A stretch of DNA of 64,000 bases from assembly GCA_000091205.1 (NCBI GenBank), contig AP006492.2. One strand, written 5' to 3'. The translations under genes were made by a program, and so were the position numbers. This DNA comes from Cyanidioschyzon merolae (lineage: Eukaryota). Of the stretch, positions 1-59,940 are shown piece by piece; the stretch's first letter is position 1; each line of letters starts with the position of its first letter. The notes beneath the pieces are model-generated. The model worked only from the letters and a program-made list of their open reading frames with translations. It did not search any database and was not told the origin of the DNA.

Positions 1-3000
1 GTTTCGTTGTGCAGAGGGTCACGAGTTCTGGGCGAACCCGAATAACATACGGCGAGGGATTCGTGGCCATGGAACGCAGCGCAAGCCGAGCTGGTGCCCG
101 CACTGCGCGCGTGAGCGCCGCCAAAAGTCTTGAGTCCAGCACGCTGTGCACAGTGCTCGAGAGCCTGCACACAACCAACGACATTCGTCGCTGGTTTGAT
201 GGACTCCGAGCATTTCAAAGCAGCAAGAGTGTCGTGCGGCAGCTCTAAGGGTCATCATGGCGTCGATTGCGCGCATGAAGGGTACGGAAGTTCGATTGTC
301 GAGGCCGGAACGCTAGCCTGGTGGCGGATGACACGGATCACGACGCAGCGCATCGTCGGCTTGAGACCGCCCGGAACGGCAGTTCCTCAGTCTGGGTACA
401 CCTGCATCATCAACACGCTTCGTTGACGCTGGAGAAGAGACTGATGGCGATTGTTGGTAACGTTGTGCGGTGGATGTGGCGCTCGCCCTACAGTTTAAAG
501 TTTTCGGGATTGCATTTTTTGTGCTTAAGGTTGTTTTTAGAAATCGCATCACTTTAGGACTCGAATACGCAACAGTGGGCCGGTACGCTAGATTTTGCGA
601 GCTAGAACTTTGGACACGAGCGCGTCGTAGGGACCCCGTATGGTCGTAAAGGTATGGCGTGCACCCCGTACGGAAACGGAAACGAGACACCGCGCGGTGT
701 GTTGTTATCACGATTGTCAGGTTCTATCATACGTTGTACATAAAGGTCAAATCATGGGACGTCATGGTCGTTCGCCATGTACCGAAAGGAACTGGTCTTA
801 GCGTACATGACCTGCGCTGCAGCCTCGCTGGATTGCTGAACCGCATCACGCCGGGGCATCGCTCCAGACAAGAATCCAATGTAATGAGGCGTACCCACTG
901 GTTTCATGATCCCAAGTGAGCAGCGTTTCAGCACAATGCCCTCACTGAATACGAAATGAATCCCTCAAGGGCTCGCCTGAAAGCAAGAAGCTGGACGCTC
1001 GGGAAGCTCGAACGATTTTCCGGAATTTTGATCGAGCATACGGCGTCTCGATATAGAAGGTGCTTCCGCGCATCGCTGCTGCTAGAATGATACCCAAGTT
1101 AGCCGCGCATCCGCGATTGCCTCGGCATCTGCTCTTCGATCAGCGTACCGTGCGCCATCTCGTGCGTCCGCCTCTGTTCCACGTTCGTCTGTTCTATCTG
1201 TTCCAGCGTGCACCTACGCTAGTGATTTGTTGATTTCGTCCGGATCGCATCGATGAGAATCGAGAACGATGGCGTCCTGGAAGCGTTGTACACTTACGTC
1301 AGTGGAGCATGCGTACAGCGTTTGAGCGCTGCAGCATGCCGAGCGCAATGGATACCCACAACTCAATGCGACATAGCGGCCATTTCCTCATCCAACTCTT
1401 TGAACAAGTTGCCGAATGCAAGTTTTTCGTCAAAGTACAAGTGAAACAATTGGCGGCCCAACACGTTTTCATATATTCCTGCGAAAAATCGTCGACGTGC
1501 GCCGTTTCAACGCCCATTTACGCGCTTGATCAAGCGTACGAAACATCCACCTCTGCTCTATACGGTGCTGAGGACGTCGATATCAAAATCCTGGCGTCGT
1601 CACGCGCCATGCTGATATGCTTCCTGGCATTCAGTGTGCCCGTCCCTCGATAAATTCGGAACCGCGCATACGTTGAGCAGGTTCATCTGCTTTCCAATCA
1701 AGTTTCTGGCGTTGTGCTCTTGGTTTCGAGGCACGACGATCTCCTTGGTGACCGTCGCTCCAGGAAACACGCTCATCACAAAGTGCTTCTCTTCATTGAC
1801 ATAATTCCGTTGAAATTGTGTCCCGTTGCTCCACGCAGGCCTGAGCTTCACTGCGTGCATATAGATCGGTGTTCCGTCGCTCTCCATCGTACTCATATAT
1901 TACGCTTCACGTACTCCTCGTAAACATGAAACATTGAACGAGCTCCGCCGGTGCACTCTGCCATGGTGTTTGAATGCTTCATACTTGCTCGCAGAAACGA
2001 TCTCCTTATCCGCTTCCACCATTGCGTGGGCGGATGGCATGCATGTGATCTTCATTCTCTAAATCCACTTTTTCCATGGTTTCAGACATAATCGGGGACG
2101 ATGGCGCTCGAGCTCGCCTCTTCGATATATGGGTCGAGTATTCCGCAGGTACTTTGCGTCACCTTCTCTGGAGCGGGCACGCCTATGGGCCGCAGCGCGA
2201 CTTTCCGCCCCGCCCTGCGTACGAGCAGGAGTTCCTTAGCTCGCTTCAGGGCTAGCACAGCGAAAGAATGGTTCGTAAACGAACATTGCCACGGATGCGA
2301 ACGACTCGTCTATTGATCTGTGAGCATCAAATTGGTGTTGGATAACAGAAAAGACGCCTTCGACTGGACTGAATCAGAAACAATAGACTGCACCGGAGTG
2401 CAGCGCAAAGTCGAACTATGCTGTGAAATATTGCACGGTTTTTGGGCGATAAAAAGTGACCTCGACATAGCGCATGACAGACGAGCATCGGACGGCGACG
2501 GCACGAAGCATGCATCGACAAAACGTCATATGATGAACGATCTTTTCTGTTGGACGCTTCATAGGCAAGCGCGCGACTGAGTCGGCTACGAGGCCCATGA
2601 TTTCGAAATGCTTGCTCGTCGCTTCTTCATGATGAGCAGATTTTCCCGCTTTGAGTACCCCGAGAAAGGTCTACGATTTCTCCCGAATGAAGTTTCATTG
2701 AGCAAGACGAACACCTGCCGCTCCTGTAATACGCGTTCACGTTTCAGTGCGAAATCAATCGGTTGTTGTTCGATGCACGACGCTCTCGAGCAGAAGCAAG
2801 CCTTATCGCGTTGTCCATCGGTTTCTTTTCTTCACCTTTCATAGCACCGGTAGAGACGCATCATATCGCGTGGCTCGTTTCGACTTCATTTCATCATAGA
2901 TTGTATGAAAAAGAAAGGATTGGCGAAGAGACATTCGCGCGGCAAGCGTTTGATAATTTCTGATTCAGTTGCACAACGTTCAGGGTATTGACTACCAGAA

Positions 3001-3443
3001 CGGTGGTTCATCCATCTGGTTCATGTGAAATAACTGACTTAAGCAATAAATCCCGTTTTTCGCGAGAGACCAGTGACACCATCGATTCCTTCCTCAACCA
3101 TTCCCCAATCTACAGGATACGTTTCTTCTGTTGAATTCCTGTAAGAAAAACAAACAAAAGCGGAAAAGCGTGCACTGATAAGAGCATTATGCAAGTCACT
3201 ACGCTTCCCCTAACGCTAGGCTCCGAACACGACCGCGACGGTGTATTCGCCTCGGTGGTCTTCGCTCTGACCCCAATCCATGGAAGCGAGCCGAATGCAT
3301 GTACATCGAGACGCAGCGCGTTCACGTGGTCAGCATATCCAGAGAAGCAAACCTGATGTGCGTAGACAGCTGAGGAGGCGTCGCTGCATCGGCTGCTGGG
3401 GCGCAGATTTTGCCCATTGTTGCAGCGCGGACAAGTGTTCCGA

Positions 3444-4035
3444 ATTCTCGAAAATTTACCTTCTAGGTGGAAGGTCTCGCGAGCCGGACGAGCCTGCCGG
3501 GCATACGCCCTGTGCGCCTCTGCAGCGACCGATGCTGTAGGGAGATCTCCGCTGCCCCTCGGCAACGTAATCAATCTGGGGCTCGCAGCGAGTATGCTGC
3601 GTTTCCGCGTCGCGCAGGTCGCAGAGGACTCCGAGCATATCGCTTCGCGCTATCGCAGGCAATACGTCTGTATGCGCATCTTGCAGGCTCCCTGAATGAC
3701 AATGAATCCCGAATCCATATCGTGCAGAACACGCCTCGAGCCGACGCCCTCTGTGGTATAGAAAAGCCGTCCTACGTCCGTGATGCATCCGTACCAAAGG
3801 TAAAGACGCCACTGCGGACTATCAGGGCAGGCATTAGGTGTCCGATAGAACGTAGGAAACGACCAGAATATCCGAGAAAAAGTATAGGTAATGTAACATG
3901 GAAGTAGGGCGTTTGAAGGATACTTCACCTCGCACTAAAAAAACACAAAAAAAAAGTAAGAAAAGAAAAATGCGCGTGATCGGAGAACGCTGGCACAAGT
4001 ACACCTTTTGTCCATGAAAAAAAAATCGGTGCTTC
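3444..4035 (+). repeat. Solo copy R1 of interspersed 'H+T' repeat family: head module (attctcgaaa..ggaaggtctcgcgagccggacgag) plus A-rich tail (cactaaaaaaacacaaaaaaaaag..atcggagaacgctgg..gtccatgaaaaaaaaa)
   Basis: Nucleotide similarity read directly to copies at 9033-9650, 13230-13700, 19176-20020, 41290-41660(rc), 51300-51730(rc); shared head 'ttctcgaaa.t.tacctt.taggtg.aaggtc.cgcgagccggacga' and shared tail 'atcggagaacgctggc..gttttgtccatgaaa'. No ORF. SINE-like (A-rich 3' end). Confidence 0.6.
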
Positions 4036-6151: not shown

Positions 6152-6398
6152 TCCATTGAGGTCCCTACGCTTTACTTAGAGCTTTTCGTTCGCTTTTAAG
6201 CCGAGACGGCAGGTTGCGCAACGTCATCGAGTTGTAGACGCGCACGAATAGCGAGTGCTTATTTCTCGACACGATGAAACTGGATTCGGAAAATAGATTC
6301 ATGAACTAAAGAGTGAACTGATTCCCGATGGAGGCCGAACGCCGTTCGAAAGTCGAACGACGGCAGTGCACCGTAGTGGCGAGAAGGCCGCCCTAGAC

Positions 6399-8674
6399 TT
6401 AACGACTCCAACTGGCGTACTGACGCTTCCTAGGCTTTCTGGACCGGCCACCCACTACTGATTCCAACTTCTTCTCATATAAATCAACTTTGAGAGGTTG
6501 TCCAATAAAGTTCTCTCGTGTCCGCTCTGGAGGTCTTTTCTCCAGCACCGCGCATCTCCTGATATTGATAGCGGCGTTGAAGTCTCGGTTAACGAACTCC
6601 ATACGCTTCTTGCCATCATTGGTTGTACATACTAATGCAATGAGTCCACGAACTTTTGCCTTCCGTTCCATTTGCTCTCCCGTCAGCGGTCCGTACTTTG
6701 CAATTTCCTCAGGACTCCTCTGGCACTTTTCCATCTCCAGGCTCTGGAGTGTGCACCCCAGTTCATGATGTGTATAAAATGTTCGAAACTCATGGATCGG
6801 TATTGTGACAAAACGCCGTGCACACTCCTTGTACGTTCTTGTCGTCGGAGCTGGCAGAGTTCCTTTTTGGGTGTTCCATCGCCCTGCTCCGTACGCTACT
6901 ACAAGCCTCTGTCTTTCATCCTTCTTCGAGGCGCTCAACTCATTGAAAAAATTCGCGAACGCCCGCTACCTCCCACCATATAGATTCGTACGCAGACGAG
7001 CCCACCGGGGCTCTGTATACTCCTCCCACAGCGCCTCCCAATGGGCAACAAGAACTTCCATGAAATTCCGAAAAGCTGTAAAGTCCGCTCCTCGGCTCGT
7101 CACCTCGCTCATAGCTTCAAGGTGATCCTTCATTCCTGCGTTCCACGTAACGATTTTCTTCCTTGCATTCATTATACCGGATTCTCGGTAGTATCTTGCT
7201 CTGGAGAACCTCCAAAGGCGCATGTCTTTCTGACGTAATTTGCCGTCAGTACCATATTCCGCACGCTTCGGTGCTGTGATGGTTATGATATTCGTGTTCC
7301 CAGGGTCTGCGCCGACGACAAAGTCGTTATCTTGGACTCTCTCCGTCGCAGGACCCGCCTCCTTCTTTTCTTCATGTTTCGCCGCGCCAACGACAAGGTC
7401 GTTATCCCGCACCTCCTGCATTGCAGGACCCGCCTTCTTCTCATCTTCATCCTTCGTGACGGGCGCAGCCAAAGGCGGACCAGCACGATCTTTCTACAAC
7501 CGCCGATAGTGTACACACAAGGCTACTCCATCGGTTTCGATCAACCCAGTGAACCACTTTTGCTCGCTCATTTTGAGACGTTTGAAATTGAAGATATTCT
7601 TCCAGTACGTTTCCCGGTTTTCATCGGAGAACTCCTCCCTGTTACCATTGAACTCCGGACTGATCCCCTTCATGATGCCGTAAAGGACTCTGGAGTCGGT
7701 ACTCACGAAATGTGACTTGATGTTGCACATTGGAACGACGTTGAAGCGCTTCCCCATTGGGACAGCCTTCCGTCTCTCCCACTCTTCATTTTTTTTCCCC
7801 ACTCAGCTTCATCTCTGCTTTGCGCTCGAGTTCTCGGTCCATGAACACGAAATACCGTACGACGAGGCGATCGTATCTTTCCTTATCTTTTTTCATGTCT
7901 GATATCTTGTCTGTTGGATTCGCCAACCCAGTACCGCACGATGCTCTTGAATAGCCGCACGGATTACAGAAGCTTCATTCGTGCTCTCGTTTGACGCCTT
8001 CTCGTCGACAAATTCGACCTCATCTTCACGCTTGCGATCTTTCACGATGTCGTTGATAATCGCCCATTTCCCATGGCGAGAGATGCCCTGGTACAGCGCA
8101 AACACGGCGCGTATCATGAAACGTTCGGGGTTCACTGTCAAATGGTTCTTCAGATTCGTGAAGTACTTCATTGCCCCGTCTGTGTAAATATCCCCGTCAC
8201 CCTTGTATCGAGTACCCTCGAGGCTGTAAAAGGGATGTTTTTCGTGGAGAGCATGCACTAGCTCATTTTGCCTCCTCGTTTCCCCTGTACCAAGCATCAG
8301 GTAACGAATAAAGTCTTATCGAAAAACTCGTCCGGAATCTCGACCGTTTCCGTGTGCGTCACGTCTCCGTACATCTCCCTCGCCAAATGAATCAATCCTG
8401 ACGACACCTCGACAACACGCTTGGAGTACGAGTCGACACGTTTTGCTGATACCCTCTCGCAACTTTTCCCTCTAGGGATCCTTGATATGTCCAAGACGAA
8501 AAGGTTTTCACCATAATATCGTCGTGCTGTCGTCTTTCCTGCAGCTTCTGACGTTGGACCTCTCCGTTTTGCCTCTTCGTCTTGTATTGTGGCTCCGGGC
8601 TTGGTACTTTTGTTCGTTTTTTTTCTGGCAGCCGGCGACACCTGTCTTCCAGGATCCTTCATTTCCATGTCCAT
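6399..8674 (-). pseudogene. Disrupted Fanzor/TnpB-like nuclease ORF (copy A): frameshift at ~8297, frame break 7802-7893, in-frame stop 7494-7496, ~69-bp tandem duplication at 7290-7450, frameshift 6938-6966
   Basis: Pieces align colinearly to copy B, but sit in different frames or are separated by stops. Start ATG 'MDMEMKD' at 8674; stop TAA at 6399-6401. Confidence 0.65.
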
Positions 8675-8900
8675 AGCTTTCCTTTGTTATTTTTTTGAAG
8701 AAGAGCGCACATGAAACGCGTTTGCTGTACACCGCGGGAAAGCACTTGAGTACACGCATTTGAGGGTTGAAACACGGTTGCACTGACAGACTATACGCTG
8801 CTAGGGCTTTAATGCAAATACAACTCGTACGTTATAGCAATACGCTCATATTAAGGATCGCGTTTCCCAGTTACGGCAAGATGCGCTTTGCGTCTCATGC
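6399..8900 (-). mobile_element. Fanzor/TnpB-like (IS605 OrfB family, RuvC nuclease) element, copy A, including conserved 5' noncoding region (8675-8900) and 3' region
   Basis: Conceptual minus-strand protein assembled from ORFs 8297-8674, 7893-8297, 7494-7802, 6966-7472, 6399-6938: RuvC-I '[13 protein letters not shown]' (Asp ~7306-7308), 'TSRGADF', 'RLVVAYGAGRW', Zn-finger region 'EFRTFYTHHELGC..LVC', RuvC-III 'VNRDFNAAINI' (6571-6597). ~50-60% aa identity to copy B at 41969-44094. Confidence 0.75.
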
Positions 8901-9032
8901 ATGCCAGATATGGAGATGCGCGTCTTGACTGCGCTCTAAAATAAAGAGCGGATAGGAACCTCTAAATACCAACTATATAACAATTTCTGGCCCCGCCTGC
9001 GATAAACGTTGAAAAAGGGAAAAGCTTACGGT

Positions 9033-9650
9033 ATTCTCGAAAGTATACCTTTTAGGTGCAAGGTCCCGCGAGCCGGACGATTCTGCCAGGGTTGTGCCTC
9101 ATGGTCGCCGCAGTGCTTCGTGCTGTAGTAAGATCTGAGCAGTTCGTCCGAAACGCAGTTGATTCTGGTACTCGTAGCGGGTATGCTGCACGTGGGCGTC
9201 GCTCTGGTCGCAGTGGACTCCTCGAATATCGTTTCGCGCTGCCACCGGCACTACGTCCGTCTCTACTGTTTCCACGCTCCCGGAATAATAATGTACTCCA
9301 GACCACGTGTCGGATGCATCATAATTCGATCCGACGCCCTCAGAAGCATGGAAAACCCGCCCTGACTTCGTGCTGCATCTGCCGCAGCGGTCTGACCGCA
9401 GACGCGGGTGCCCCAGACAGGCAAGACCCCCGATAGAACGTAAAAGAACGATCAGTATTTTCGAAAGCAAGTCTGAATGATAGACCTTGGTACACCAGCA
9501 TGACGAACGCTTTGTTTCGATTACCAGTACGCATCCCGCAATCTGGGATCCTTCGTCAATGGAACCGGTTTATCAAGAGTAGAGAAGATCACAAGCAGCG
9601 TGGCCGCCGCCTGCCTGACACAGCGGCTACACGGCCTACAGCATTGCTGT
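9033..9650 (+). repeat. Copy R2 of the H-module repeat (no A-rich tail), abutting the 5' end of Fanzor copy A in divergent orientation
   Basis: 'attctcgaaagtataccttttaggtgcaaggtcccgcgagccggacgat..gctgtagtaagatctgagcagttcgtccgaaacgcag' matches R1/R4/R5; downstream 'gcatcccgcaatctgggatcc' matches internal part of R4 (19690). Confidence 0.55.
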
Positions 9651-13229: not shown

Positions 13230-13700
13230 CGTCAATCAATCGCCGGCTTCGCGTACCGCGTTGCACCCGAGCGCTAGCATCTTGCGTGCGTTGGGGTGCG
13301 CGCGCCGGCACGCACCTCTCGATGCGTGCCGGCGCATTCGGGCGGGCGATGCTGCGAGTAACGCCTCTGCTGCTGCCGAGCATGCAACAGGCGATGCGTC
13401 CTCGAGCCGACGCCCTCTGTATGGTACGGCAACGCCGTTCTGTCTCCGTGCAGGGACCGCACCGGCGCTATAGGCGCTATTGCGGTCGCCGCTTTCGGCA
13501 GGCACTAGGCACACACGATAGGACGTATGAGATGACCAGAATATCCGAGATGAAGGATAGGTAATGTAACGTGGGAGTAGGGGATTCGGTGGATACTTGA
13601 CCGCGCACTGAAAAAATAACACAAAAAAGTAGGAATAGAAAAATACGCATTATCGGAGAACGCTGGCCTAAGTAAACGTTTTGTCAATGAAAGAAAAACT
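13230..13700 (+). repeat. Solo copy R3 of the H+T repeat family (5' part diverged or truncated)
   Basis: 13395-13700 aligns with R1 3735-4035 ('cctcgagccgacgccctctgt..agaatatccgagat..ggtaatgtaac..cactgaaaaaataacacaaaaaagtagg..atcggagaacgctggcc..gttttgtcaatgaaag'); weaker match back to ~13230. Confidence 0.5.
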
Positions 13701-19175: not shown

Positions 19176-20020
19176 TATTCGAGTGTTACGCTTCTGGGGG
19201 CAGGAGGCCCCGCGAACCGGACGAGTCTACCGGGCTTGCGCTCCGTGTGCCTCTGCATTGCCGGGCTCAGGAGCAAGACGCAAGGAACTCGTTCGCCACG
19301 CAGTTCATTCTGGGACTAGGAGCGGTTGGGCTGTCTCTGGGCGTCGACCTGGTCACGGAAGTCTCCAAGCATATCGCTCCACGCTGCCGCAAGCTGAAGA
19401 GCTGGCTGCGCAACTCGCACGCTCCCAGCAGGACGAAGAGGCCGGATTCCTTGTTCAATGAACCACGCCTCGAGCCGACACCCCCAGTGGTGTGGCAAAG
19501 CCGTTCTGACTGGGTGCTCCATTCGCACCGGCGGTACAGACGTTACGGTGGGTGCTCACTGGATGCGCTCAGTCCACGACAGATCGTATCGAGCGACCAG
19601 TCCATCCGAGAGCAAGGATCGGAGATGGAACTTGAAGGTACACTGAAGAATAATGGACGCTTTTCTTAATCTCAATATGCATCCCGCAGTCTAGGATCCA
19701 CGCTCCAAGTAAACGTTCTGGATGAACAAACGCAATCCACAAGGGTCGTCTGCGCCGCTGTGCCGCTCCGGGAACGCGGCAGCGATCCATGCAATCGCCC
19801 AGCTCGCTTGCAACGCATGGCGATCGTCCCGGAGGCGCGGCCGGAGCGGCAGCTCAAGGCAACGAAGGGCGAGGCGAGGCAGCGCGGTGCGGCAGGCGCC
19901 ACCGGCGGCGATCGCATCGATCACATGCACCGCGCACTGAAAAACCCCCCAAAAAGAAAGGCAAAATGCGCATCATCGGAGAACGCTGGCCTGAGTGAAC
20001 GTTTTGTCCATGAAAAAGAA
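19176..20020 (+). repeat. Solo copy R4 of the H+T repeat family (longest copy, ~845 bp, extra internal segment)
   Basis: Head 'ggaggccccgcgaaccggacgagtctaccgggc', body 'cacgcctcgagccgacaccc', tail 'cactgaaaaaccccccaaaaagaaaggcaaaatgcgcatcatcggagaacgctggcctgagtgaacgttttgtccatgaaaaag' match R1/R3. Confidence 0.6.
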
Positions 20021-35799: not shown

Positions 35800-35980
35800 G
35801 TTGCATGCATGCGCTTGCACACGTGTCCATGCATGCGTGACCATGCATGCGTGTGCATTCAATGCATGATCGCTGTACGCGTGTCCATGCATGCATGCGC
35901 TTGCACACGTGTCCATGCATGCGTGTGCATTCGATGCATGATCGCTGTATGCGTGCTTGCGTGCGTGCGCGTGCACGAAG
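35800..35980. repeat. Tandem repeat (~70-80 bp unit x2-3) rich in palindromic CATGCATG / GCATGC motifs
   Basis: 'gcttgcacacgtgtccatgcatgcgtg..catgcatgcgtgtgcattc[a/g]atgcatgatcgctgta[c/t]gcgtg' repeated; read directly. Confidence 0.6.
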
Positions 35981-39314: not shown

Positions 39315-40817
39315 TCAGTTTGCGCCAGGCGTCGTAGCTGTCGGATCTCGAACTGATGCCACGGGTTCTGGACGACAATTACCGTCACGATCTACAGACT
39401 CCTGTCCCGCTTCTTGGTTGCTTTCCGATGCAAGCCAGTCACGAATAGCCTGAACCAGGGGCGGGCCCCGTTGCATCTGGATTTGCTCCTGCGTCGACAG
39501 CCTTTTGAGGCCGACCACGCCGGCTGCGAGTTCGTCTTCACCGAGAATGGCGAGCACCGGGATGCCGCGTTCCAATGCATACTGCAGCTGTCGAGCCATC
39601 TTGGGTCGTTCAGCGTACAAACATTCCGCCGCTAGATGAGCGCGCCATAGCTCATCACATAATTTCAGACGCTGCACGAGATCTACCTTGCCAATGCCCA
39701 CCACAAGCACCTGCGTCTTGCTTGCGCGAATGACGCGGCCAGTGGCTTGGGCAAGTTCACGTTCAGCCTCCTCCATTAGGGAAAAGATTCTCTCTATACC
39801 GATTGAAGTGCCTACGCAGGGTACGGGTTTCCCGGCAAAGTCCTCCACCAAACGATCATAGCGTCCACCGGCACCGATAGAGCCCAGCGGTGTTGAACCG
39901 TCCGTGAGCACGGCCTCGAAAATGAGACCCGTGTAGTAGTCTAGGCCGCGGGCGAGGGCAAGGTTCAGCGTACAACGTTCCAGGACATTGCCCATCGCCT
40001 CCAGGTACGAAAACAAGCGCTCGAGATCGGCCAGTGCTTCCTCGGCTCCAAACTTGCCGCAACAGAGGCTGTGGTCGGCCTGGAGCTCGCGGAGCAGCTC
40101 CCTGGGCTTGCCCGCTCGCGTCACAAACTGGCCAATCCGATCCGCACATGGTGCGGTTAGGCCTTTCACGTCGATCATTTCCTTTCGTACAACATCCCAA
40201 GGCTCCTTGTCGAGTTTGTCAATCGATGAGCAAATGGGTCGCAGAAGCTCCTTCGGCACGCCACATAGCTGCAGAATCGCATCCAGTAGACCTCGGTGGC
40301 TCAGTTTTACCTGATAGGATCCCAGTCTCTGGCGATGATACGGGCTCAAAGCCGCAAACTCGTCCAACACTTCAATGAGGACTCGAAGGACCTCAGCATC
40401 CGGTACCATCGGAGGATGCTGACCAGCAATATCGAAGTCGCACTGGTAAAACTCGCGAAAGCGACCACGAGCGATCGCCGGCTGGTCTCGTCGGTACACC
40501 CGACCCAGTTGGTATCGCTTGAGGCTCACAATGCCGTGCGTCGCAAGAAAGCGCGCGAAAGGCACCGTCAAATCGTAGCGGAGGGAAAGCAACTCGCCGC
40601 CCTGATCGGCAATGTCGTAGATGAGCTTGCTCTCCTCACCGTACTGACCCAGAAGCGTCTCTTTCAACTCGAAAACAGGCGTTTCGATAGTCACTGCGCC
40701 GTGGCGTTCAAAAACAGAGGTCACGAGCGCGAAAACGCGTTGACGTATGGCCATCTGCTCGGGTAGGAAGTCGCGGGTGCCCTTGGGCACCTTGCAGACT
40801 CGTCTCCCCGTCGACAT
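39315..40817 (-). CDS. HARS: Histidyl-tRNA synthetase (class II aaRS, eukaryotic type)
   Basis: 'CKVPKGTRDFLPEQMAIRQRVFALVTSVFERHGAVTIETPVFELKETL..LRYDLTVPFARFLATHG..RRDQPAIARGRFREFYQCDFDIAG' = HisRS motif 1/2 regions. ATG 'MSTGRR' verified at 40817 (ORF-track start 41132 lies upstream). Confidence 0.85.
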   Translation of the reverse strand: MSTGRRVCKVPKGTRDFLPEQMAIRQRVFALVTSVFERHGAVTIETPVFELKETLLGQYGEESKLIYDIADQGGELLSLRYDLTVPFARFLATHGIVSLKRYQLGRVYRRDQPAIARGRFREFYQCDFDIAGQHPPMVPDAEVLRVLIEVLDEFAALSPYHRQRLGSYQVKLSHRGLLDAILQLCGVPKELLRPICSSIDKLDKEPWDVVRKEMIDVKGLTAPCADRIGQFVTRAGKPRELLRELQADHSLCCGKFGAEEALADLERLFSYLEAMGNVLERCTLNLALARGLDYYTGLIFEAVLTDGSTPLGSIGAGGRYDRLVEDFAGKPVPCVGTSIGIERIFSLMEEAERELAQATGRVIRASKTQVLVVGIGKVDLVQRLKLCDELWRAHLAAECLYAERPKMARQLQYALERGIPVLAILGEDELAAGVVGLKRLSTQEQIQMQRGPPLVQAIRDWLASESNQEAGQESVDRDGNCRPEPVASVRDPTATTPGAN

Positions 40818-41289
40818 CGCACACGTCCTCTCAAGCGCTCTCGTTCGTCGAGGTACTCGGGCACTGCACGAGCGAATGTGTGCAGTAGTTGACTGCGCCA
40901 GGAACGCACTACGAAACGACTTGCTCAAGGCGGCAGTCCGTAACGTTACTGCACAGAACATGAGTAATAAGCGTCGTCCCGAGGGTACGAAGTCGTCTGC
41001 GGCAGTCGACGACTGGCGGCGACGCGGCGATTGCGGCGCTTCTGGTTGACGATTTCTCTTTGTCTTGACAAAACGTTTACGTTGACCACGGATCACAGAC
41101 TGCGGGATGGATATCGGTTGTCGACAAAGCATCTGTCATACTGCGCCCTACCTCCAAACTCCATTTCGCATATCTCCTTTCGGATATACTGGCTGTTTCG
41201 CACGTTCCATCGTGCGGCGGTTTCTGGCTTTGAGCACCCGCCGCCGCGCCCCAACCATTTACACGGATGCATCACGGAGGCAGACTGAC

Positions 41290-41660
41290 ATTGCCATACC
41301 GTATGAGGCATCGGCTCGAGGCGCCGTTCCTTCAACACAGACTCCACGTGCATAGTCATTCTGGGAGCCTGCAAGTTCCGCACCCAGACGTACTGTCTGC
41401 TGCAGCGCGAAGCGAAATACCAGGAGTCTACTGCTACCAGGGCGACGCCCAAACACAGCCTAACTGCCCCTAATCCCAGAATGATTTGCGTTTCGGACGA
41501 GCTGCTCAGACCTCACTACAGCACCAGCTACTGGGTAGCGTACGGAGCGCCTGACCCGCGGACTCGTCCGGCTCGCAGGACCTTCCGCCGAAAAAGTAAA
41601 CGTTCCGCAGTATGGAAAACTTTTCCTCCTTTTATCGTTCATCGTAGAGAGGGAATGAAA
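41290..41660 (-). repeat. Copy R5 of the H-module repeat (no tail), abutting the 5' end of Fanzor copy B in divergent orientation
   Basis: Reverse complement reads 'gaacgtttactttttcggcggaaggtcctgcgagccggacgagtccgcggg..gctgtagtgaggtctgagcagctcgtccgaaacgcaaatcattctgg..acgtctgggtgcggaacttgcaggctccc..cctcgagccgatgcc', matching R1/R2/R4. Confidence 0.55.
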
Positions 41661-41759
41661 TATATATTTGCTGGTAAATCGAGAGTCTCTGTACAATTTT
41701 TTCATATAGCGCGTTCCATACGCGCACCCGGGAGATCAGGCCGTCACATGACACGACGG

Positions 41760-44160
41760 GCATGACGCCGCTGAAGAGAAACGTAATATGGACTTGTTGA
41801 CCTGTTCCTCGAACGTATGCGTTGTAACGGTGTTGAAGTCAGAGCAAAATACAGTGTTTGATCTCAATACTATTTCAACCCTCAATTGGTTGTTCCCAAA
41901 AGCTTTTTCGCGGTTTACAGCACAAGCGTTCAAAGTGCGTTCGTTTTCGAGAATAAAAAAGGAAAGTTATGGACAAGAGAGTCGAGGCCTGCGGAGGCCA
42001 CGTGTCACCAGGTTCGACAAAACACTGGAAAACAGTGCGGGGCCCAGAGCGACAGGAGAAGGGGAAAGAGCAAAACTGGGAGCTCGCACATCAACTGCAA
42101 CTCGAAAGACGATACAATGACGAGAACGTAGAGAGAGCCTGTCTTCCAGGCCATCTCAGGGCTCCTTACAGAGAAAAGATGCAGGAGGGCATCAGAAACC
42201 GCGTCCTATCGTAATCCAGGAGTATTTGAAAAGCTTCTCTTTGATTGATGCATTTGGTGAGGGACCTTTACCATGACGTTACGGACATCAAAACAGTCGA
42301 GGTTCCGGAGGAGTTTTTCAGTGTGACCTTCATCCGCCAACTGATGCTTGGCCCAGAGCGAACCTCGACGATAGACGATCGAGTGCGAGCCCTACACCAA
42401 ACATATGCCTTCTACCGCTTCAACGGTTCTCGATACAAGGGTGACTTGGGCATTGACACCTACAGGGCGATGAAGTATCTCGAAGACTTGAAGAGCCACC
42501 TGATCGAAAACCTCGAAAGCTTCATGAACTGCTCCGTCTTCGCGCTCTACGATGGCCTCTCTGTCCGCGGGAGATGGGCGATCATCAATGGCATCACGAA
42601 CGATCACCAGGATGAAGCGGAGATAGAATGCTTCGGTGCGAAAACATCGTACAGGTGTACGTATGAGAATTCTGTGATCTGTGCAGCCATTCAGGAGCAC
42701 CTTGCGGTACCGGGGCTTGTCAACCCTGCAGAAAAGGTATCAGAGATGAAAAGAGATACGAAAAGATTCATCCCCTCATTCTGCGCTATTTCGTGTACCT
42801 GAACCGAGAGCTCGAACGCAAGGCGGAGATGCAGCTGGGTGAAAAACGAAATGGAGCGCCGGAAAAACGGAAGGCTGCGCTTCTGAAGAAGCGCTTTCAC
42901 GTCGTTCCGATACGCAACACCATGTTGCACTTCGTGACCATCGACTCCAGCGTCCTTTACGGCATGATGCAGGAGATCAGTCCGAAGTTCGACGTCAGCT
43001 CGGAGGAGTTCACGGGGATAGACTGGGAGACTCATTGGAAAAATGTCTTCGATTTCAAAGGTATCAGGAAGAGCAACACAGAAGCATTCGCAGGCAAGAT
43101 CGAAACCGATGGGGTATGCATATGTGTACACTCCAGGCGCTTGAGCAGGCATCGTCATATCCTGTCATCGTTTTCGCCCTGGACGAAGCATCAAAAGAGA
43201 GAGGCGATCCATATGCTGTACGAGCCGCAGAAGAGCGACTTTGTCGTCGGCGTGGACCCTGGAAAGAAGGATATCATGGCCGTCGCTGTGCCATAGTATG
43301 CAAAAGACGGTATCAATGCCAACTTACGCCAAATGGACATGCGTATGTTGAGGTTCTCGACGGCTAGATTCAACAGAGAGTCGGGGATGATAGGTGCCTT
43401 GAGGCAAACCGAGGCTTGGAACTCAAGATTGAAGGAGCACCTGGAAGCGGTCAGCAAAGTGACGAGCTGCGGAGCGGACTTTCGGACCTATCTGGAATTC
43501 ATGGAAACGCACGCTGCGCATGATGGGGACCTGTGGAAGGAGTACATAAAGCCCCGATGGGTTCGTCTGCCTATGGACCTGTACGGAGGGGAGCAGCGTG
43601 CATTCGCCAATTTCTTCAATGAGTTCTGCGCCCTCAAAGAAGGCAAGAGTCAAAGGCTCGTAATAGCGTACGGAGCAGGGAGCTCGTTGCCCGAAAACGG
43701 GAGCACACCGGCACCGTCGACACAAGCGTTCATCGAGTGCGCAAAGCGTTTTGTCACTGTCGTAATAGTCGAGTTCCGAACGACCTGCGTGCACCATGAG
43801 CTGGGCTGTACACTCCAGAAGGTCAGGATGGGGACACAGCCGCCGAGCTCTTCGGGGAAAGAAAATCACGGGGAGCGAACAGAGCGGCCGATGCCACAGA
43901 GGGCGCTAGTTCGAGGACGCCTTCTGTTGGACACTACAGTCAGCGCCATGAAACGCAGGGAGTTCGTGAACCGAGACTTCAACGCCGCCATGAACATCAG
44001 GCGATGTGCTCTGCTGAAGACGAGACCCCCGGAGCTTACGCGAGCGAACTTCGAGGGTAGCTTCCCGGGCTCGACGTGTGCTGGGGGAAACTGAATCCGA
44101 CAGCAGTCGACCGGTCAGAAAAGGATGGGAAGCGTCTGCGAGTGGGGAGATATATATTAA
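41760..44160 (+). mobile_element. Fanzor/TnpB-like (OrfB family, RuvC nuclease) element, copy B, with conserved 5' leader and 3' noncoding region
   Basis: ORFs 41969-42214 / 42245-42802 / 42793-43296 / 43333-44094 are colinear with copy A. RuvC-I 'DFVVGVDPGKKDIMAV' (43247-43293), 'TSCGADF', 'RLVIAYGAGSS' (43666-43680), 'EFRTTCVHHELGC', RuvC-III 'VNRDFNAAMNI' (43969-43995). Upstream 41810-41968 is ~80% nt-identical to 8675-8860(rc). Confidence 0.75.
41969..44094 (+). pseudogene. Fanzor/TnpB-like nuclease ORF (copy B), nearly intact: one frameshift near 42748-42795 and one in-frame TAG at 43297-43299
   Basis: '..IMAVAVP*YAKDGINANLRQMDMRMLRFSTARFNRESG' aligns to copy A '..[36 protein letters not shown]' across the TAG, so the stop replaces a sense codon. 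Start 'MDKRVEAC' ATG at 41969. Confidence 0.6.
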
Positions 44161-45099
44161 CCCTCCACTGTTGTGAGACATTTTTCGTTTTTTTTACGGT
44201 ACGGAAAGAATGAGCATAAAACAGACTGGAAGCTGCGCGATTCGGTTTAGCGGCAGGAAGTGCTGCGCAGATGACTCGCCATTGCCCATGCAGTGGCAAT
44301 ATTCTTGCTACCAATGACCATTTTGCGTGTTCAGGTGGTGTCCATCGAGGAAGGACCCCAATATTCCGTTTTGGTGTCGTGCCTTTGGTGGCACCCATCG
44401 CCTCCTTCGCAACATCCTCTTTAAACTCAACATACAAGCCCGGATAACCGGCAGCGTGCACACATCCGGGAAGGCTTGCTAGGTCCATCGTCCATGCACC
44501 AACAAAATTGTGCCTGGAGACACCCTCTGCCAAGAAGTCGCTGCGCAACTCGCGCCAACAATTCTACGCAGGAGTCTGAGCAGTCTCCGAGCAGTCACCA
44601 GCCGTAGCTGCAGCCACGGATTTTCGCGACACACGCTCAAATGCTTTCCTGGCGCCTGGAAGTTTACTCAATCAGCGCAATGCGGTACATGCCTCTGGTA
44701 TTTCGCAGCACGCATTGTCGTCGTGCATGGACGCTGAAACGCTGTCTATCAAAGAATCCTCTACTCGTATTGTGACGCTGAACACAGCCGCGACTTCACC
44801 GAAATGCGTGCCCCAGTGTGTGGACGATGCGTAGCGCCGTACGACATCAACGCTTCTCCAGTGCCTATGCGAGGTTCATACGGAGCTCTGAACTGCGGGC
44901 TCTGTTCCGGACTTGCGCATTTTCCCGGACTTGGTTTCAGAAATGTAGTCTAGACGTTTGAAGTGCAGCAGTAGGGTCTTGGAGATTCATGCGTTGCTTT
45001 AGGATTCTTGGTCGTCTTTTCGATCTGGCGCTTTCGATTCGCTGCCGACGGAGCTCGTAACTTTACGGGAATCAGGATGATTCGCGGCAGCTTCGAACG

Positions 45100-45812
45100 A
45101 TGGTTCATAAACTAACCGATACCAATATGCAATGCAGACCCACAAGCCTTCAGGGTTCTTGTTTCCTAGCGTGCAGCATGCGCACACCGTGCATACTTCA
45201 AGTTTTCGATTTTTCAGGCACTGGGAAAACAGTGAGTGCAGTGATTCGCGCCAGCGGACTGAGGTGGAAAAGTAGTCGACACCGTTTCTTGATGGCATTC
45301 GCACAAGCTCATTCCATAAGCTTACTGAACCTGGTCAAGCCCAGTAATCAGTTCCGCTCGAAAAACAAGTCATCCCCTATTTGGGGCCATCATCCCCAAG
45401 AGAAACCCGTCATCGTAGTGGGCGTTCACGAACGCGGAAACCGGGGTCGTCATCGAGGATGGCCCCAGGTACCCCCCAGACGACGTGTACTGAGCGTTGC
45501 AACAATCGTGTACGCAATGCAAAGTAGCCTTCGGACGAGCGTGTATGCTGGACGTACGGGAAGACCTGTCCAGTGTCAAGTGTGACCGCTGCGAAGCGGA
45601 CACCGACGCTGTATACGAATGAGCTGACTGTAGCGAGCGACGTGTAGGTGGCAACTCGCGCTTGTGCATGAAATGCGTCAACAGCGGCTGCGGGTGGCGA
45701 AACCGACACTTTCTACATTGCCATGAACGTCCATTGATTGCCAACAAGGGAGCTGGAGAGACAGATGAGACCGACATTGTTACAGCCGCGGATACGAGAC
45801 AGGAATGGAAGC
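45100..45812 (-). repeat. Left copy of an inverted repeat pair (~0.7 kb); core 45250-45812 is ~97% identical to the reverse complement of 59224-59790
   Basis: The reverse complement of 'acaatgtcggtctcatctgtctctccagctcccttgttggcaatcaatggacgttcatgg' (59264-59323) is 45721-45780 exactly; ~8 mismatches per 320 bp in the compared core. Outer ~150 bp more diverged. No long credible ORF. Confidence 0.75.
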
Positions 45813-45948
45813 AGTCGGAGAAAAAGCCTGTATAGGCTGCTACTCAGGACAATGGAGTAAATCACACTTTAGGGCGTATGCCCGATGTAGCTCTGTGAAC
45901 CCGTTCCGTTTCGTACTGACACGAGCGTGTCGCGGCCGCCTTTGCTTT

Positions 45949-59223: not shown

Positions 59224-59940
59224 CGACTGCTTCCATTCCTGTCTCGTATCCGCGGCTGTAACAATGTCGGTCTCATCTGTCTCTCCAGCTCCCTTGTTGG
59301 CAATCAATGGACGTTCATGGCAATGTAGAAAGTGTCGGTTTCGCCACTCGCAGCCGCTGTTGACGCATTTCATGCACAAGCGCGAGTTGCCACCTACACG
59401 TCGCTCGCTACAGTCAGCTCATTCGTATACAGCGTCGGTGTGCGCTTTGCAGCGGTCACACTTGACACTGGACAGGTCTTCCCTTACGTCCAGCATACAC
59501 GCTCGTCCGAAGGCTACTTTGCAGTGCGTACACGATTGTTGCAACGCTCAGTACACGTCGTCCGGGGGTACCTGGGGCCATCCTCGATGACGACCCCGGT
59601 TTCCGTGTTCGTGAACGCCCACTACGATGACGGGTTTCTCTTGGGGATGATGGCCCCAAATAGGGGATGACTTTTTTTTTCGAGCGGAACTGATTACTGG
59701 GCTTGACCAGGTTCAGTAAGCTTATGGAATGAGCTTGTGCGAATGCCATCAAGAAACGGTGTCGACTACTTTTCCACCTCAGTCCGCTGGCGCGAATCAC
59801 TGCACCCACGGGTGCCTTGAAACAGAAACATCGAAAACATGCAAGACGCGTGATGCGAGCATGCACTATGTGACAAAACAAAAATAATGCATTCTTTTGC
59901 GTATGAATTCGATGGTCGCGGCTGTTATTTCATGAACCTT
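59224..59940 (+). repeat. Right copy of the inverted repeat pair (see 45100-45812)
   Basis: ~97% identical to reverse complement of 45250-45812; 216 bp downstream of the FAN1 stop. Confidence 0.75.

Follow-up and report, generated by a model that had tools for sequence, protein, structure and literature searches.

The RNA-guided nucleases of the Fanzor and TnpB families are encoded next to their own guides: the template of the omegaRNA lies at the 3' end of the nuclease gene and stops at the transposon's right end, and the guide is taken from the flank (PMC10432273; PMC10530073). Fanzor RNAs derive from the 3' non-coding region that abuts the right end, and their conservation reaches into the open reading frame (ORF), also in viral and algal Fanzors (PMC10530073). 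The omegaRNA of GtFz1 overlaps 17 codons of its gene and that of ISDra2 overlaps more, and the scaffold of SpuFz1, 75 nt in length, lies wholly downstream of the stop codon (PMC10432273). In Cyanidioschyzon merolae, a red alga, the one Fanzor1 family is CMe-1A, an element of about 3 kb that is present in about 150 copies, which are about 80% identical to the consensus and of which some are still intact (Bao and Jurka, 2013, Mob DNA 4:12; PMC3627910). The element lacks terminal inverted repeats (TIRs); its target-site duplications (TSDs) were undetermined in 2013, its ends were not defined there, and its 5' 635 bp are common to the solo element TE-N2_CMe (PMC3627910). A literature search found no paper linking a Fanzor omegaRNA to C. 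merolae. Here we describe two copies of CMe-1A, A and B, in a 64,000-nt stretch of contig AP006492.2 (hereafter the window), and in particular the interval 44095-44160 behind the last open frame of copy B, for which a preliminary description had proposed non-coding conservation and a candidate omegaRNA scaffold. At the level of the family, we arrive at the reading that the flagged stretch is the coding tail of the Fanzor1 gene and that the final ~140 nt of the element are the template of a Fanzor omegaRNA scaffold, to which we assign a probability of roughly 60%.

The window is nuclear DNA of C. merolae 10D, and its bZIP ORF at 4436-6151 matches BAM80178.1 of this strain exactly. Copies A and B both belong to the known Fanzor1-bearing element CMe-1A and are decayed. 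They agree with the published family in organism, family assignment, length (~3 kb), absence of TIRs and a 5' end shared with TE-N2_CMe, and in both accounts copies are ~70-80% identical, with intact and decayed ORFs mixed. The published account differs in that it was written before RNA guidance had been discovered, and it contains neither the sharp right end nor the terminal hairpin nor the rod formed by the coding tail and the 3' untranslated region (UTR), all of which are presented below (Bao and Jurka, 2013).

The homology to Fanzor1 is seen with a profile of eight family proteins, which in the Protein Data Bank (PDB) matches only the Fanzor1 of Spizellomyces punctatus (SpuFz1; 8gkh; E 7.4e-10), over the RuvC half (profile positions 274-642 against chain residues 654-1027). 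Such a profile search was needed, since phmmer with the single stitched protein of copy A returned only noise from the PDB. The RuvC series D...[TS][TS]...RD of Bao and Jurka (2013) is present in copy B (GVDPGKKDI, VEFRTTCVHH, NRDFNAAMNI), in the consensus (VDEFRTSYTHH) and also in copy A (NRDFNAAINI). Searches of Pfam and NCBIfam with the ORF fragments of the window gave no matches, and close homologs were likewise without a local Pfam match; for the zinc-ribbon (TNB) domain placed between RuvC-II and RuvC-III, PF07282 (Cas12f1-like TNB) was matched only in the distant homolog P0032 (E 1e-6). A precomputed annotation gives DUF8286.

A coding tail seen through a frameshift

What was flagged is the final portion of the Fanzor1 coding sequence: a basic tail at the C terminus whose consensus ends in KKLEAVVGGRSKKTGRRLHVSWRRFV directly before the stop codon. 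The tail is translated in intact metagenomic relatives (P0005, with LEAVVDGRSKRTRRRLHLGWRRF; P0008, with LEAVGGGRSKKARRHLHVSWRLLL at its end), and distant homologs (31-51% identity) retain a tail motif LE..GR, the Arg of which is invariant among homologs that are 31-74% identical. Across 65 copies of the A type, the interval that corresponds to 6467-6420 of copy A shows codon periodicity, with a variability of 0.23 at third positions versus 0.15 at the first two, and this periodicity disappears only past ~6419. With 21 of 67 distinct copies, codon 70 (counted after the M of MEFVNRD) is the commonest stop, preceded by HVSWRRFV; it is the TAG of GTCTAG, at 6395-6393 in copy A.

The similarity on which the flag was based is real. 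The two 48-mers that had been compared lie at 44094-44141 of copy B (plus strand) and 6463-6416 of copy A (minus strand). In a global alignment they agree in 34 of 51 columns (67%, versus 50 ± 4% after shuffling, with 0 of 2000 shuffles as high), and in a local alignment they score 25 versus 17 ± 2.1 (1 of 500 shuffles as high). The match is also colinear with the alignment of the ORFs, which in BLAST ends at 44051 in copy B and 6508 in copy A, with the tails 59 versus 60 nt beyond. It is, however, not elevated over the rest of the ORF. An identity of ~75% had been quoted; the measured 67% is close to the ORF-wide 68.5%, which was obtained over the 3' half of the gene (B 43236-44051, plus strand, versus A 7326-6508, minus strand), and the further upstream part (41387-43143 versus 9257-7497) is 69% identical. 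In a long gapped alignment of the two copies the flagged stretch reaches 32 of 52 (62%), and its 48-column windows range from 0.48 to 0.65, versus up to 0.88 at the RuvC-III motif.

The apparent end of the protein in copy B has a simple origin. After the shared CGAG(A/C)GAACTT, copy B is one base shorter than copy A over 60 nt, which amounts to a net 1-nt deletion between ~44047 and 44090, so that its TGA at 44092-44094 does not lie in the ancestral frame. Read in the other frame, copy B has a G, a stop codon (TAG, 44058-44060) and then LPGLDVCWGKLNPTAVDRSEKDGKRLRVGRY, which lines up with GQPLKVDLYEKKLESVVGGRSRKPRKRQYASWSR and the following stop in copy A; the homologous tail is thus still encoded in the shifted frame of copy B, as KLNPTAVDRSEKDGKRLRVGR versus KLESVVGGRSRKPRKRQY in copy A. 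That A continues as an ORF and B has stopped is literally true but misleading, and the argument for a constraint independent of the reading frame fails, because the stretch belongs to the coding sequence and only a frameshift hides this. Taken by itself, the observation is ordinary: both transposon copies are dead and of common ancestry, and through a frameshift coding sequence comes to look non-coding. Between two pseudogenes of shared ancestry, a DNA similarity that outlasts the open frame is to be expected, and the resemblance of A and B reflects their descent from one element, not selection on these two copies.

The right end of the family and its 3' module

The family was sampled by a metagenome scan which gave 389 relatives, with 80 loci kept; the samples carry a closely related alga, and two of the loci (L003 and L004) are copy A's own locus at 98%. 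In an alignment of 68 distinct 3' ends, column conservation stays at 0.8-0.9 from RuvC-III to the stop codon and over the next ~65-70 nt, and then drops abruptly to 0.3-0.4 about 270 nt after the M of MEFVNRD, at ~6333 in copy A. Judged from this alignment, the abrupt loss of conservation marks the right end of the element, which the description of 2013 had left undefined. The non-coding 3' part consists, in this order, of a GC hairpin (GGCGGG-UUU-CUCGCC), the near-invariant motif GCCACUACUGUACAC, a variable linker and a terminal hairpin. The latter takes the form CGUCGUUCGA-CUU-UCGAACGGCG or that of a register-shifted class, CGUUUUUC-UUUU-GAAAGGCG, and is lengthened by pairing of the linker with the last 7-9 nt, with GGUG as a frequent end.

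The near-consensus copies fold with z scores of -6.95, -6.76 and -5.94 and have one two-domain architecture in common. In this shared fold, GCAGUAGUGG of the coding tail pairs with CCACUACUGU of the UTR and closes a rod of ~90 nt around the stop codon; the terminal hairpin comes after it. The UTR arm opposite GCAGUAGUGG is CCACUACUG, and a long-range helix of 10 bp joins GCAGTAGTGG of the coding tail with CCACTACTGT, a near-invariant motif of the UTR. Among 30 copies drawn at random, the mean z of the last 142 nt is -2.6, with 67% of the copies below -2; six control windows of equal size from the ORF gave values of -0.2 to -0.85. The same helices are present in 40-64% of the per-copy minimum-free-energy (MFE) folds. 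Taken separately, the rod has a mean z of -2.24 (60% of copies below -2) and the terminal hairpin one of -2.95. The coding part alone yields only -0.67, from which it follows that the stability comes from the pairing between tail and UTR.

Covariation was assessed on two alignments. On the sequence-only alignment (A2), 85.4% of the cells are paired versus 84.6% in shuffled controls (1 of 500 as high), and 15 cells are changed on both sides versus 7.6 (7 of 500). The second alignment, in which 64 distinct copies were fitted to the covariance model R1, leans to structure by construction; it contains 17 pairs changed on both sides versus 9.3, 47 such cells versus 16.7 and 54 further pair types versus 39.6 (each 0 of 500), and no more than 12 pairs and 24 cells occur in slid controls. 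In the fitted alignment, each of the ten pairs of the terminal hairpin changes on both sides. Double substitutions preserve the long-range helix in the lineages that diverge most, namely copy B, L032/L036 (A:U to C:G) and L008 (A:U to U:A). The terminal hairpin is more stable when formed from the 5' and 3' halves of one copy than from chimeras (-16.5 versus -14.4 kcal/mol; 0 of 2000 permutations as low). Counts of G:U versus A:C in three helices, beginning with the long-range helix, are 63:18, 90:20 and 74:23, and this large excess of G:U assigns the structure to the sense strand.

Other helices were considered and set aside. An alternative local fold of the flagged stretch (AGTTGG with CCAGTT and a G:U-rich helix of 7 bp) combines high pairing with no pair changed on both sides and no excess over shuffles, and the long-range helix was preferred. 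The hairpin at the stop codon and the GC hairpin, H1, are conserved, but essentially without covariation.

In the distant homolog P0029 (37% identical; L083, 2100-2240), the tail sequence ACAACGG pairs in the MFE fold with CCGUUGU ~95 nt downstream in the 3' UTR, around a hairpin of 13 bp. This fold resembles the CMe-1A rod, but its z is only -0.5. The 3' regions of the distant homologs P0029 and P0031 gave no significant fold stability in arbitrary windows, a result that is uninformative without the element ends.

The left junctions (copy A at ~9578, copy B at ~41063, L034, L072, L039, L023 and others) read YG/AT(T)TTT, with the slash at the junction. Many right ends finish in GGCG-TTGATGG-TG, which is like the left junction GTTG/AT.

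The omegaRNA reading and its rivals

The position of the module fits that of an omegaRNA template, with conservation that continues through the stop codon, ends abruptly in the non-coding sequence and is recovered in the window as a model match at 6331-6472. It is plausible that the 3' module of CMe-1A is an omegaRNA template. In an active element, the ORF would then contribute its last ~65 nt to the final ~140 nt, and non-coding sequence the other ~65-70 nt. Pairing of the coding tail with the UTR on the sense strand would close the ~90-nt rod around the stop codon; a terminal hairpin of 10-19 bp would come next, with its base at the element's right end. As in TnpB and Fanzor systems, transcripts would extend ~15-20 nt into flanking DNA and so include the guide. 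Expression of the omegaRNA as a discrete species with a variable guide of ~14-21 nt past the right end, its binding by the nuclease and TAM-dependent guided cleavage by CMe-1A are predicted on the same analogy.

The idea of an omegaRNA scaffold may hold on other grounds than those on which it was put forward. The last ~140 nt of the family, including the flagged stretch, fold well, carry compensatory changes, among others in a helix whose 5' strand lies in the flagged stretch, and end at the right end, and conservation in other genomic copies is borne out, with 68 distinct 3' ends conserved through the region up to the right end; yet the original reasoning fails, and copy B itself retains only a weak trace of the module.

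Among characterized systems, the omegaRNA (reRNA) of the ISDra2 TnpB and that of the GtFz1 of Guillardia theta resemble the candidate CMe-1A RNA in that their template reaches into the nuclease ORF at its 3' end and stops at the right end; there is no similarity to the CMe-1A module at the level of sequence or Rfam. SpuFz1 (Saito et al., 2023; PDB 8gkh) is the only solved structure matched by the CMe-1A family profile. Its elements carry inverted repeats of 30 nt, unlike CMe-1A; its scaffold does not overlap the ORF, whereas the predicted CMe-1A rod uses ~21 codons; and the extra C-terminal tail of CMe-1A is absent from SpuFz1, the 8gkh alignment ending at RP..FSR.

Several observations weigh against an omegaRNA template at this position. 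On the unfitted alignment the covariation is modest, and the null trials of the method itself give values as high in 5-25% of alignments without constraint; the stronger covariation counts come from the alignment fitted to the modelled structure. RNAalifold predicted only three pairs on a MAFFT alignment of 50 copies, and it yields almost nothing on such alignments, in which the linker and hairpin are aligned in shifted register between the two hairpin classes. In the non-coding 3' segment, diversity averages 0.27-0.30, much as at third codon positions (0.21-0.33); the overall constraint is thus not obviously above neutral and only sub-motifs are near-invariant, and the third-position diversity in the tail is only ~15% below that upstream. 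Neither copy A nor copy B matches Rfam. Copy A folds no better than its shuffles (z -0.09), and the z of -2.6 for copy B stems from a different fold that is rich in A/U runs. Finally, a hairpin at a transposon end may be a signal at the level of DNA instead.

The rival that survives best holds that only coding similarity has been inherited: the tail would have no role as RNA, any omegaRNA scaffold would be confined to the ~65-70 nt after the stop, as in SpuFz1, and the complementarity of tail and UTR would be fortuitous. The codon periodicity and the translated tails suit this explanation, as do the unelevated identity of A and B, the lack of structure in the coding part when it is folded alone (z -0.67) and the precedent of the 75-nt SpuFz1 scaffold, which lies entirely past the stop (PMC10432273). 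On the unfitted alignment, moreover, the long-range helix has a single double-change pair and 5-7 unpaired cells per pair, and by our own estimate the chance of an inverted repeat of 9-10 nt within 150 nt is a few per cent, which is not negligible. A fortuitous complementarity is difficult to reconcile with the stability of the rod across tail and UTR (mean z -2.24, 60% of copies below -2), with the fact that the UTR arm CCACTACTG is the most conserved non-coding motif, with the double substitutions that maintain pairing in copy B, L032/L036 and L008, and with the excess of G:U over A:C (63:18) in the long-range helix. We consider this explanation unlikely, although it deserves to be taken seriously.

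Somewhat less likely still is that the module serves as a DNA-level transposition signal, in which a sub-terminal hairpin on single-stranded DNA is recognised by a transposase acting in trans, as in IS200/IS605 or Helitron-type elements. The boundary of the element is sharp at the base of the hairpin, TIRs and TSDs are absent (PMC3627910), and the left end also has an imperfect palindrome, CAATGACAAAACGTTTACATTG, ~10 nt inside. The asymmetry between G:U and A:C would suit RNA and top-strand single-stranded DNA equally. In the IS200/IS605 elements of bacteria, one and the same region holds the right-end hairpin and the omegaRNA template, which counts for a DNA signal here; such a signal would at the same time be compatible with an omegaRNA template and does not exclude it. 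Pairing that extends 65 nt deep into the ORF is left unexplained by a signal of this kind, and we know of no Y1 (TnpA) or Y2 transposase reported for the CMe-1A family, although no search for one was made.

A function of the module in the Fanzor mRNA itself, in 3'-end formation, stability or as a translation-termination hairpin at the stop, would agree with the sense-strand specificity of the structure and with the location of the stop codon inside predicted helices (AGACG-UUU-CGUCU and UAG with CUA), but it is very improbable, given that the stop-proximal helices are almost without covariation, that the structure reaches the exact element end, as a generic UTR element need not, and that characterized Fanzor loci use this region for the omegaRNA.

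If the module is an omegaRNA template, a thermotolerant red-algal pair of Fanzor1 and omegaRNA would be added to those described, with an unusually deep overlap of ORF and guide RNA for a eukaryote. The family-level result locates the right end of the CMe-1A Fanzor1 element, which had not been fixed before, and offers a concrete omegaRNA model, with a rod, a terminal hairpin and a guide start predicted by coordinate. C. merolae is genetically tractable and nearly intron-less, and it grows at ~42-45 °C and low pH. The known picture of Fanzor function would stay unchanged even if the model were confirmed.

CMe-1A may be a hairpin-ended element without TIRs like IS200/IS605, and the lack of TIRs together with the palindrome near the left end makes its ends look more like those of IS200/IS605 than those of SpuFz1. 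Hairpin-like sequences are thus found at both ends; the right-end hairpin is robust, the left palindrome was seen in about 12 junctions only, and the absence of TIRs and TSDs is taken from the published description (PMC3627910). A far-reaching extension would make CMe-1A a eukaryotic nuclear element built like bacterial IS200/IS605, with hairpins at both ends and neither TIRs nor TSDs, with a ~140-nt omegaRNA that takes its 5' half from the gene itself (the last ~21 codons) and pairs this half to a near-invariant motif in the UTR, and with intact copies that, in a thermoacidophilic red alga, still produce an active, heat- and acid-adapted RNA-guided nuclease. Taken as a whole, this picture is improbable.

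Copies A and B and their surroundings

Table 1. Position of the CMe-1A copies, their coding remnants and their 3' modules in the window.
Feature	Position	Strand	Remarks
Copy A, CMe-1A element	~9578..6331	-	Left end ~9578, right end ~6333-6331; gene is a pseudogene
Copy A, Fanzor1 coding remnants	6399..8674	-	Homologs 60-76% identical; RuvC-I DPGNTNI, RuvC-II HEFRT, RuvC-III NRDFNAAINI (6590-6561)
Copy A, stretch compared in the preliminary description	6416..6463	-	Codes for ESVVGGRSRKPRKRQY, part of the C-terminal tail
Copy A, structured 3' module (candidate omegaRNA scaffold template)	6331..6472	-	Covariance model R1, 131 bits, E 1.6e-27
Copy A, long-range helix	5' strand 6461-6452, 3' strand 6379-6370	-	
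Copy A, GC hairpin core	6392-6378	-	
Copy A, terminal hairpin	6362-6340	-	Extended by linker and 6339-6333
Copy B, divergent decayed CMe-1-type element	~41063..44219	+	Left-end homology from ~41063; right end between ~44191 and ~44219
Copy B, last open Fanzor pseudogene fragment	43333..44094	+	RuvC-III NRDFNAAMNI 43969-43998; ends at TGA 44092-44094
Copy B, flagged interval	44095..44160	+	Shifted-frame coding-tail remnant (NPTAVDRSEKDGKRLRVGRYI), then start of degraded 3' non-coding region
Copy B, degenerate 3' module trace	44086..44219	+	R1 17.5 bits, E 1.6e-4 over 501 nt, filters off

Copies A and B are both pseudogenes and neither encodes a nuclease; the window contains no intact, potentially active Fanzor1 ORF, as both copies have in-frame stops and frameshifts (Table 1). 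Copy A has in-frame TAGs at 7496-7494 and at 6968-6966, its frame changes at least three times from 8674 to 7790, and its own stop is TAA at 6401-6399, ahead of the position of the family consensus stop. Copy B has a TAG at 43294-43296 and several frame changes. The left end of copy A is placed where the leftmost homology with other copies clusters, at 9575-9578. The right end of copy B is bounded by the homology to its sole B-like paralog (L048/L058), which stops at 44191, and by the match to the structure model, which reaches 44219. Copy B belongs to an outlier lineage, with at most 60% protein identity to all other copies, and a search for its close relatives gave only a 97% ortholog (P0045) and the one degenerate paralog.

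The R1 match in copy A is the only one in the window at E ≤ 0.01, and the only match of the nhmmer right-end profile in the window lies at 6398-6335, also in copy A. In copy B, the long-range helix is represented by CGACAG (44098-44103) with CTGTTG (44168-44173), which differ from the consensus CAGTAG/CTACTG by two compensatory double substitutions. Copy A thus keeps the sequence of the module and has lost its fold stability, and copy B keeps a trace only; it is unlikely that either copy functions.

Solo copies of the element's 5' ~600 bp, which correspond to TE-N2_CMe of Bao and Jurka (2013), lie at 3429-4025, 13400-13698 and 19199-19720 and are homologous to 9033-9379 of copy A and 41069-41626 of copy B. 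A profile search of the window found the A-type right-end module in none of the three. Copy A contains a tandem duplication of 73 nt in its minus-strand gene (7309-7381 and 7384-7456, 78% identical), which encodes units ending in QDNDxVVG directly upstream of the RuvC-I motif DPGNTN; homologs have 2-5 such units (P0001, P0007), and the length of this linker is therefore variable in the CMe-1A family. In L048 and L058, three Fanzor copies lie within 4 kb (~200-3900), with an A-type copy and the only B-like paralog arranged tail to tail and their right ends ~22 nt apart.

If counted from its first ATG, a histidyl-tRNA synthetase ORF (39315-41132, minus strand) runs ~70 nt into the left-end region of copy B (~41063-41143); since the exact sequence of 605 amino acids is absent from the protein collection, translation probably starts further downstream. 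An inverted repeat of 643 bp (45176-45817 and 59224-59864), which has no relation to the Fanzor element, is 95% identical between its arms, which are ~13.4 kb apart. A short tandem or direct repeat, 79% identical, is formed by 35802-35906 and 35888-35976.

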